DNA of 64,000 bases from NCBI RefSeq assembly GCF_053078305.1, contig NZ_CP166879.1. The stretch is one strand, 5' to 3'. The position numbers were made by a program, and so were the translations under genes. This document shows positions 28,183 to 29,721 of the stretch, one piece after another. Position 1 is the first letter of the stretch. The number at the start of each line of letters is the position of its first letter. Below the pieces are notes generated by a model. That model saw only the letters and a list, made by a program, of their open reading frames with translations. It did no database searches and was not told the DNA's origin.

Positions 28183-28635
28183 TTAATGTTGCGGTTTATA
28201 ACGCATATAAAAATTAATAAACCACGCTCCCCGGCATTCAACGCGCTGCTGCTTAACTGTCTGAAAACCATAACGTTCAAAAAAGGGTTTTGCGGTTATG
28301 CTTGCGTCCACCGTAAGTTCGGATTCAGACTTAATCAAAGGTTTTAACAAAGCGCTGGCAACCCCACGGCGGGTGTATTCAGGGTCAACAAATAACATAT
28401 CGATATAGTATTCAACGCAGGTAATAAAGCCGACCAGTTTTGCATTAATGACTGCAACCCGCACTTGTGATTTCGCGAGTTTCTCCTTCCAGCGAGATTC
28501 GTCAATCTGCGCCCAGGCGGCAATTTGTTGTGGTGAATAATGCTGACTGGCGGTCATCGTAACCGCTCTAAGGAAAATAGCGCATAGTTGCTGAAAATCG
28601 CCAGGCTGATAGTTTCTTATTTGTATGTTATTCAT
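28183..28635 (-). CDS. yafP: GNAT-family acetyltransferase YafP
   Basis: 150 aa ORF; start overlaps the dinB stop. Confidence 0.85.
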
Positions 28636-29687
28636 AATCCCAGCACCAGTTGTCTTTCCATTTGCGGGTCAAGCAACGTCACATGCAGCCCCACCAGTCG
28701 CACACCGCGCCCGCCGCGGCGTTCATCCCAGGTTTTACGCGCGGTGGCGATTAAGTCAGCTTTATTCAGCCGCGGCCAGACGTGCTCCTGGGTGGTTTGC
28801 TGAAAATCGTCGAACTTTAATTTCACCCCCTGGCGAGCAATCAGTAAATCAGGTTTTACCTTTGCCAGACGGCGTTCAAGTTCCGGATACAGCCGCTCGA
28901 TAATCGCTTCACATTCAGACCAGTGATGAATATCTTCCGCCATCGTGCGTTCCACGCCGACGGATTTTCGTAACCGTTCGCTGTTAACGTCGCGCTCGTC
29001 AATCCCCTGACTACGCTCCCACAAAATGCGGCCAAATTTGCCAAAGCGTTTAAGCAGAATCACCAGATCACACTTTTGTACATCACCGCAGGTCCGCAGC
29101 CCCATCGCTTCCAGTTTTGCCGCCGAGACTTTGCCGACGCCGGGGATTTTTGCCAGTGGTAAGGTTTGTAAAAATGTCGGAACTTCTGCCGGCGTAATCA
29201 CAAACTGGCCGTTGGGTTTATTCATGTCTGAGGCGATTTTGGCGAGAAACTTTACTGGTGCCACGCCCGCAGATGCCGTCAGTTGCAGCTCGTTGAAGAT
29301 CGTCTGGCGGATTTCCTGGGCGATGAGGGTCGCAGAACCGTGGCAATGGACGCTATCGGTGACATCGAGATAAGCCTCATCCAGTGACAACGGTTCAATA
29401 CGCGAGGTGTAGCGCGAGAAGATTTCACGGATATGATTTGAGGCTTCTTTGTAGGCGTCAAAGCGCCCCGGAAGCAAGGTGAGATGCGGGCATAATTTGA
29501 GCGCCATCCCTGTCGGCATAGCGCTACGTACGCCAAATTTACGCGCGGGATAATTGGCGGTGCTGATCACCCCCCGACGTTCGCGGCTACCGCCAATAGC
29601 AATAGGGATATCGCGCAGGGCGGGATTGTCGCGCATCTCCACTGCGGCGAAAAAGCAGTCCATATCCACATGAATGATTTTACGCAT
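28632..29687 (-). CDS. dinB: DNA polymerase IV
   Basis: 351 aa, [33 protein letters not shown]... Confidence 0.95.
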
Positions 29688-29701
29688 TACTCACCTCTCA
29701 A

Positions 29702-29721
29702 CACTGGTAAAGTATACAGTG
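29702..29721. promoter_or_regulatory. LexA (SOS) box upstream of dinB
   Basis: cactggtaaagtatacagtg, a palindromic CTG-N10-CAG. Confidence 0.7.

Follow-up and report, generated by a model that had tools for sequence, protein, structure and literature searches.

In Escherichia coli K-12 the gene for DNA polymerase IV, dinB, belongs to a four-gene operon, dinB-yafN-yafO-yafP. In the E. coli DNA analysed here, a stretch of 64 kb to which we refer as the window, dinB runs directly into yafP. The locus thus raises the question of whether the window carries an anomalous form of the operon with respect to K-12, and by which route this form came about. The dinB–yafP arrangement without yafN and yafO is the common short allele of this DNA-damage-inducible operon. 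Its parts are described below together with its distribution in the species and with the evidence that bears on its origin.

The dinB–yafP gene pair and its expression

The two genes, the sequence at which they meet and the elements upstream of dinB are all found on the minus strand and are listed in Table 1.

Table 1. Features of the dinB–yafP operon in the window
Feature	Position	Strand	Basis
LexA (SOS) box CACTGTATACTTTACCAGTG, core CTG-N10-CAG at 29704–29719	29702–29721	-	exact K-12 match
Predicted sigma-70-like promoter, -35 TTCTCA (29738–29733), 16-nt spacer, -10 TATACT (29716–29711)	29711–29738	-	consensus scan
dinB, DNA polymerase IV, 351 aa, intact	28632–29687	-	NCBIfam NF002677, Pfam, K-12 comparison
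Junction heptamer ATTATGA, dinB stop and yafP start	28632–28638	-	K-12 alignment
yafP, GNAT-family N-acetyltransferase, 150 aa, intact	28183–28635	-	NCBIfam NF007338, Pfam

The dinB product scores 545.2 bits against its NCBIfam model (cut-off 256) over residues 1–345, and Pfam recognizes in it the domains IMS, IMS_HHH, IMS_HHH_1 and IMS_C, which cover the polymerase, HHH and little-finger parts of the enzyme. It is 99.4% identical to the K-12 protein, from which it differs by the two substitutions A171T and M210I. The catalytic carboxylates D8, D103 and E104 are all kept, and the C-terminus (...ERQLVLGL) carries the clamp-binding motif QLVLGL. The yafP product matches the model of YafP-type GNAT proteins from end to end (1–150 of 150 positions; 324.5 bits, cut-off 146) and contains the Pfam domain Acetyltransf_10 (5e-19). 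Its identity with K-12 YafP, as measured by tblastn, amounts to 92.7%, corresponding to 11 substitutions. In the comparison of the window with K-12, the one pair for which the placement of the substitutions was examined, eight of the 11 differences (W59R, I62V, Q66K, P67L, S72T, R73C, I74V and H76Y) fall within residues 59–76. K-12 YafP may be the atypical one of the two, since it is only 91–93% identical, over the whole protein, to that of every other lineage compared.

Positions 28632–28635 read TCAT on the plus strand, that is ATGA on the strand of the operon. The dinB TGA (28634–28632) and the yafP ATG (28635–28633) share these four bases and nothing lies between the two genes. Upstream of dinB, the LexA box matches that of K-12 dinB at 20/20 nt, and it represents the sole match to CACTGTATACTTTACCAGTG in the window when up to three mismatches are allowed, 0.02 matches being expected by chance. 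A preliminary description of this DNA had noted an overlap between the dinB stop and the yafP start and an intact LexA box upstream of dinB; the shared ATGA and the 20-mer common to the window and K-12 bear out both statements. The predicted dinB promoter agrees with the consensus at 9 of 12 positions, has the same sequence as in K-12, and places its -10 hexamer TATACT within the LexA box. Over the 70 nt 5' of dinB a single base differs from K-12; it is situated outside the LexA box, beside the start codon. A CTG-N10-CAG core overlapping a promoter, as is characteristic of SOS-regulon boxes, is thus present and predicts control by LexA, the promoter itself being expected to function as described in the K-12 literature.

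According to this organization, LexA would repress one promoter driving a single dinB-yafP mRNA, from which both Pol IV, the polymerase of translesion synthesis, and YafP would be produced. A scan of the operon strand for intrinsic terminators found none after yafP. Pairing to the anti-Shine-Dalgarno sequence is predicted to be weak for the 20 nt preceding the yafP ATG (-5.1 kcal/mol, compared with -10.1 for dinB), and the K-12 stretch located after yafO and before yafP does no better (+0.4). Because yafP lacks a usable Shine-Dalgarno sequence, we infer that ribosomes would stop at the TGA of dinB and start again on the yafP ATG that overlaps it. ATGA overlaps usually work by such termination-reinitiation. 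Such coupling would tie the output of YafP to that of Pol IV, and in this strain the synthesis of YafP is therefore probably linked directly to Pol IV translation.

The mRNA would be induced by DNA damage and, following the literature cited by Gutierrez et al. (Nucleic Acids Res 2011, PMC3105422), by RpoS in stationary phase. The same paper attributes the translation of yafP to 'translational frameshifting', not to reinitiation. In its two-gene model strain, CFT073, both mitomycin C and stationary phase induced a YafP-YFP fusion, and Pol IV was found to counteract a YafP-dependent rise in the cytotoxicity of 4-nitroquinoline oxide (NQO) (PMC3105422). An acetyltransferase activity of YafP on nitroaromatic metabolites is put forward there as a proposal drawn from genetics.

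Absence of yafN and yafO and distribution of the short allele

The operon of the window was aligned with that of K-12, represented by the DH5alpha locus (L001) taken on the operon strand. The alignment contains one clean gap of 759 bp and shows 97.8% identity elsewhere. What the window lacks consists of the dinB-yafN spacer, yafN, yafO and the 9-nt spacer between yafO and yafP. On the other hand, the promoter and the LexA box are the same in both operons and the neighbours match as well, with the lafU/flhA-like Flag-2 scar at one end and rtcB'/prfH'/pepD at the other. In K-12, the segment missing from the window is bracketed by a 7-bp direct repeat, ATTATGA, at positions 1050 and 1809 of the operon. 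The dinB stop lies in the left copy (...CTGGG-ATTATGA-TGTATAC...) and the yafP start in the right one (...GAATTTAT-ATTATGA-ATAACATAC...), and the window has a single copy of the repeat.

In tblastn searches with K-12 YafN and YafO against the whole 64-kb window the best E value was 0.33, and in blastn the 752-bp K-12 insert gave only chance matches of 11–15 nt over the same 64 kb. The tblastn and short-word blastn searches rule out a relocation of yafN–yafO within the window. A cryptic toxin-antitoxin gene was also considered among the alternative-frame ORFs inside 28183–29687, none of which has a Pfam match. Thus the window contains no type II toxin-antitoxin system formed by YafN, a Phd/YefM-type antitoxin, and YafO. 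The preliminary description had reported yafN and yafO as missing relative to K-12 and had named yafN/yafO-like ORFs in 28183–29687 as the finding that would speak against this. The absence corresponds to the single 759-bp gap, and such ORFs were looked for and none is present according to the tblastn, blastn and Pfam checks.

When 5,426 complete E. coli genomes were probed with 120 bp spanning the junction, 2,569 (47%) matched without interruption; the others, among those listed, match the probe as two separate halves. The yafNO segment of K-12 was detected in 2,847 of the 5,426 (52%), and the two classes together make up nearly the whole set. The dinB–yafP interval is therefore a balanced, species-wide presence/absence polymorphism and is not peculiar to the window. 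The junction sequence of the window, GGGATTATGAATAAC, is the same in the other two-gene E. coli loci examined, and ET350 and Escherichia sp. MOD1-EC7003 share this junction. The yafP allele of the window is 1 base away from that of ET350 and 16 bases away from that of K-12.

The two-gene arrangement is already known, having been published in 2011 for about half of E. coli: a two-gene operon with the ATGA overlap was described in 40–50% of strains, including CFT073 (Gutierrez et al., PMC3105422). Among the ECOR strains, in which the junction was confirmed by PCR and sequencing, all members of group B1 have the two-gene form and nearly all members of group A the four-gene form, while groups B2 and D are mixed (PMC3105422). 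The CFT073-type operon has the same gene order, ATGA overlap, absence of yafN and yafO and LexA-controlled dinB promoter as the window, and nothing of substance distinguishes the two. Since about half of the strains have the short form and since it was described in 2011, the allele of the window is an ordinary one. It should not be flagged as anomalous with respect to K-12, and it matters little beyond correct annotation. Our comparison makes one small addition to the literature: the endpoints of the deletion share the 7 bp ATTATGA, and not only the 4 bp given in the 2011 paper, where the event is described as recombination between a pair of ATGA sequences.

Direction and number of the probable deletion events

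The reading that we consider very probable is that the window carries the CFT073-type two-gene SOS allele, derived from the four-gene operon by a recurrent 759-bp deletion and having YafP coupled to Pol IV. We infer the direction of the indel and its mechanism from the repeat and from the comparisons that follow. A four-gene ancestor would have lost 759 bp precisely between its two ATTATGA copies, by slippage or by microhomology-mediated illegitimate recombination. The loss of yafNO would also have taken away the internal control region of yafN and the SOS-linked mRNA interferase YafO.

In order to assess the number of events, the haplotypes of dinB and yafP were compared across 15 loci. Two-gene and four-gene alleles are interspersed among them, and the pairs AVS0528/A42 and NIPH17/O157 each combine the two forms on shared flanking haplotypes. 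Indeed, no base distinguishes the two-gene locus of AVS0528 (L014) from the four-gene locus of A42 (L019) in the final 351 nt of dinB or in the initial 217 nt of yafP. Compared with the two-gene allele of the window, AVS0528 shows 39 differences in dinB and 28 in yafP, the nearest of which are found 122 nt upstream of the junction and 36 nt downstream of it. The identity of the AVS0528 and A42 flanks implies that the same junction arose on different backgrounds, which is easy to obtain by deletion between 7-bp repeats and hard to obtain by insertion or by the spread of a single event. We regard the divergent flank shared by AVS0528 and A42 as direct evidence, at the level of haplotypes, for a probable independent deletion on that background. 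The haplotypes as a whole indicate recurrent independent deletions within E. coli, not one event.

A third allele was found in Escherichia sp. E1V33 (positions 1251–3135 of locus L006, minus strand), where the order is dinB-yafN-yafP and yafO is lost after about 9 codons. The deletion, of 379 bp, is bounded by a TTAT microhomology and leaves yafN as an orphan antitoxin gene. The operon and its flanks are the same as in the window and in both cases the deletion is bounded by microhomology, the difference being that E1V33 keeps yafN and the window lacks the whole cassette. The parts of the 2011 paper used here make no mention of an allele of this type (PMC3105422). In strain EC31, yafO is a pseudogene with an internal stop. 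The loss of yafO alone in E1V33 fits a piecemeal loss of the cassette and, together with the flanking haplotypes, supports repeated microhomology-mediated loss.

For the outgroups, species-representative genomes were scanned with a degenerate DNA pattern for the C-terminus of DinB. Among the nine loci returned, two have four genes (E. coli and E. whittamii), one has two (Escherichia sp. MOD1-EC7003) and one retains yafN only (E1V33). The five others, from Buttiauxella and Yokenella, have neither yafP nor yafNO after dinB within the stretch covered, which for Yokenella is about 0.6 kb downstream. The sample is thus a small one, made up of four Escherichia-like loci plus Buttiauxella and Yokenella, and the state of E. 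fergusonii is taken from the literature: this species has the four-gene form, and the authors concluded from it that yafNO had been lost independently three times or more (PMC3105422).

The order of events could also be the reverse. The two-gene, ATGA-coupled operon would then be the original one and the K-12 yafNO segment a later insertion that duplicated the 7 bp ATTATGA, with the window either never having received it or having reverted precisely. The repeat brackets the 759 bp exactly, and in the window its one copy contains the dinB stop as well as the yafP start; a 7-bp match at those two functional positions is unlikely to occur by chance and corresponds to the footprint expected of a target duplication. 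Toxin-antitoxin modules are commonly mobile. Moreover, since neither yafNO nor yafP comes after dinB in Buttiauxella and Yokenella, the downstream block as a whole is lineage-specific. However, the interspersion of alleles represented by AVS0528/A42 and NIPH17/O157 would require the cassette to have inserted several times at one and the same base, and the cassette contains no transposase or integrase. The four-gene form is also that of E. whittamii in our scan and of E. fergusonii in the published account (PMC3105422). In addition, an early insertion that was later lost precisely and repeatedly is compatible with the deletion favoured for the window. We therefore consider it unlikely that the two-gene operon came first, and give the same low probability to the view that the repeat is the target-site duplication of a mobile yafNO cassette inserted early in Escherichia, the two-gene alleles being reversions or survivors. 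If true, this would make the locus a natural case of an SOS operon that can gain a toxin-antitoxin module and lose it again, and would reverse the published view of the four-gene form as ancestral.

Another possibility is one ancient deletion that homologous recombination subsequently carried from one E. coli lineage to another. The junction is the same, base for base, in every two-gene locus examined, including that of one non-coli Escherichia, and the dinB and yafP haplotypes are mosaic (ET350 differs from the window at 1 site in yafP but at 19 in dinB). An identical junction is nevertheless expected if every deletion makes use of the same 7-bp repeat. In addition, AVS0528 has all the flanking SNPs of A42 for 351 nt on the upstream side of the junction and 217 nt on the downstream side, and departs from window-type alleles within 122 nt and 36 nt, so that an imported tract would need a flank of less than about 160 bp. 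This makes a single, spreading deletion quite improbable. As for an artefact of assembly or sequencing in the window as the explanation for the missing yafNO, 2,569 of 5,426 complete genomes, independent of one another, have the same uninterrupted 120-bp junction. On these population counts we reject it as practically inconceivable. Furthermore, dinB and yafP are intact and in the expected register, and PCR and sequencing of ECOR strains gave the same junction (PMC3105422).

Flanking genes and strain context

Several features of the neighbourhood were recorded alongside the operon. K-12 carries, 3' of yafP, a 72-bp ERIC-like element (..GTGAATCGCCAGGAGCTTACATAAGTAAGTGACTGGGGTGAACG..) that is absent from ET350 and from the window, where the corresponding site lies in the yafP-rtcB' spacer at about 27985. 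This element explains the 72–73-bp length classes observed among the matching loci. Between yafP and the rtcB fragment, at 28058–28105 on the minus strand, there is a mini-ORF of 15 codons (MTNPLSMTLCRPFQD), upstream of which lies AAGGAGG, a nearly perfect Shine-Dalgarno sequence (-12.8 kcal/mol). Its sequence is the same in K-12 and ET350, it is unannotated in the RefSeq records examined, and it could encode a leader peptide for the rtcB-prfH operon. That operon is itself truncated: in 27214–27964 (minus strand) rtcB is cut to an N-terminal fragment (model positions 1–69 of 379) and the N-terminus of prfH is missing (model positions 31–200 of 200 are covered). The internal deletion is the one seen in K-12, several other strains having the full 1140-bp rtcB. 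On the dinB side, 29758–32227 correspond to the K-12-type deletion scar of Flag-2 (lateral flagella), in which a truncated lafU ORF (29758–30648, minus strand) overlaps an N-terminally truncated flhA-like ORF (30488–32227, plus strand). ET350, the closest match for dinB–yafP, retains lafU followed by motA.

Over the larger region, the 16–40 kb part of the window is fully collinear with its best match among complete E. coli genomes, at 97.7% identity. The part from 40 to 64 kb contains a type VI secretion vgrG/PAAR effector island, for which a few strains reach 99.5%, over only 75% of the length. The strain seems to be poorly represented, or mosaic, across 16000–64000. An origin of the window in an unusual lineage was considered and set aside, the region being collinear with ordinary E. 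coli and the 40–64 kb part being found at 99.5% in some strains.

The neighbouring toxin-antitoxin pair, dinJ (34052–34312) and yafQ (34315–34593), both on the plus strand, is intact, and a strong LexA-like box, CTGTATATATATTCAG, is situated at 34020–34035, just upstream of dinJ. With yafNO gone and dinJ-yafQ intact, the strain has lost one LexA-boxed toxin-antitoxin module and keeps another 4.4 kb away. For users of the strain this means that the SOS-induced mRNA-interferase toxin YafO and its antitoxin are absent, and that the LexA-boxed dinJ-yafQ pair is present.
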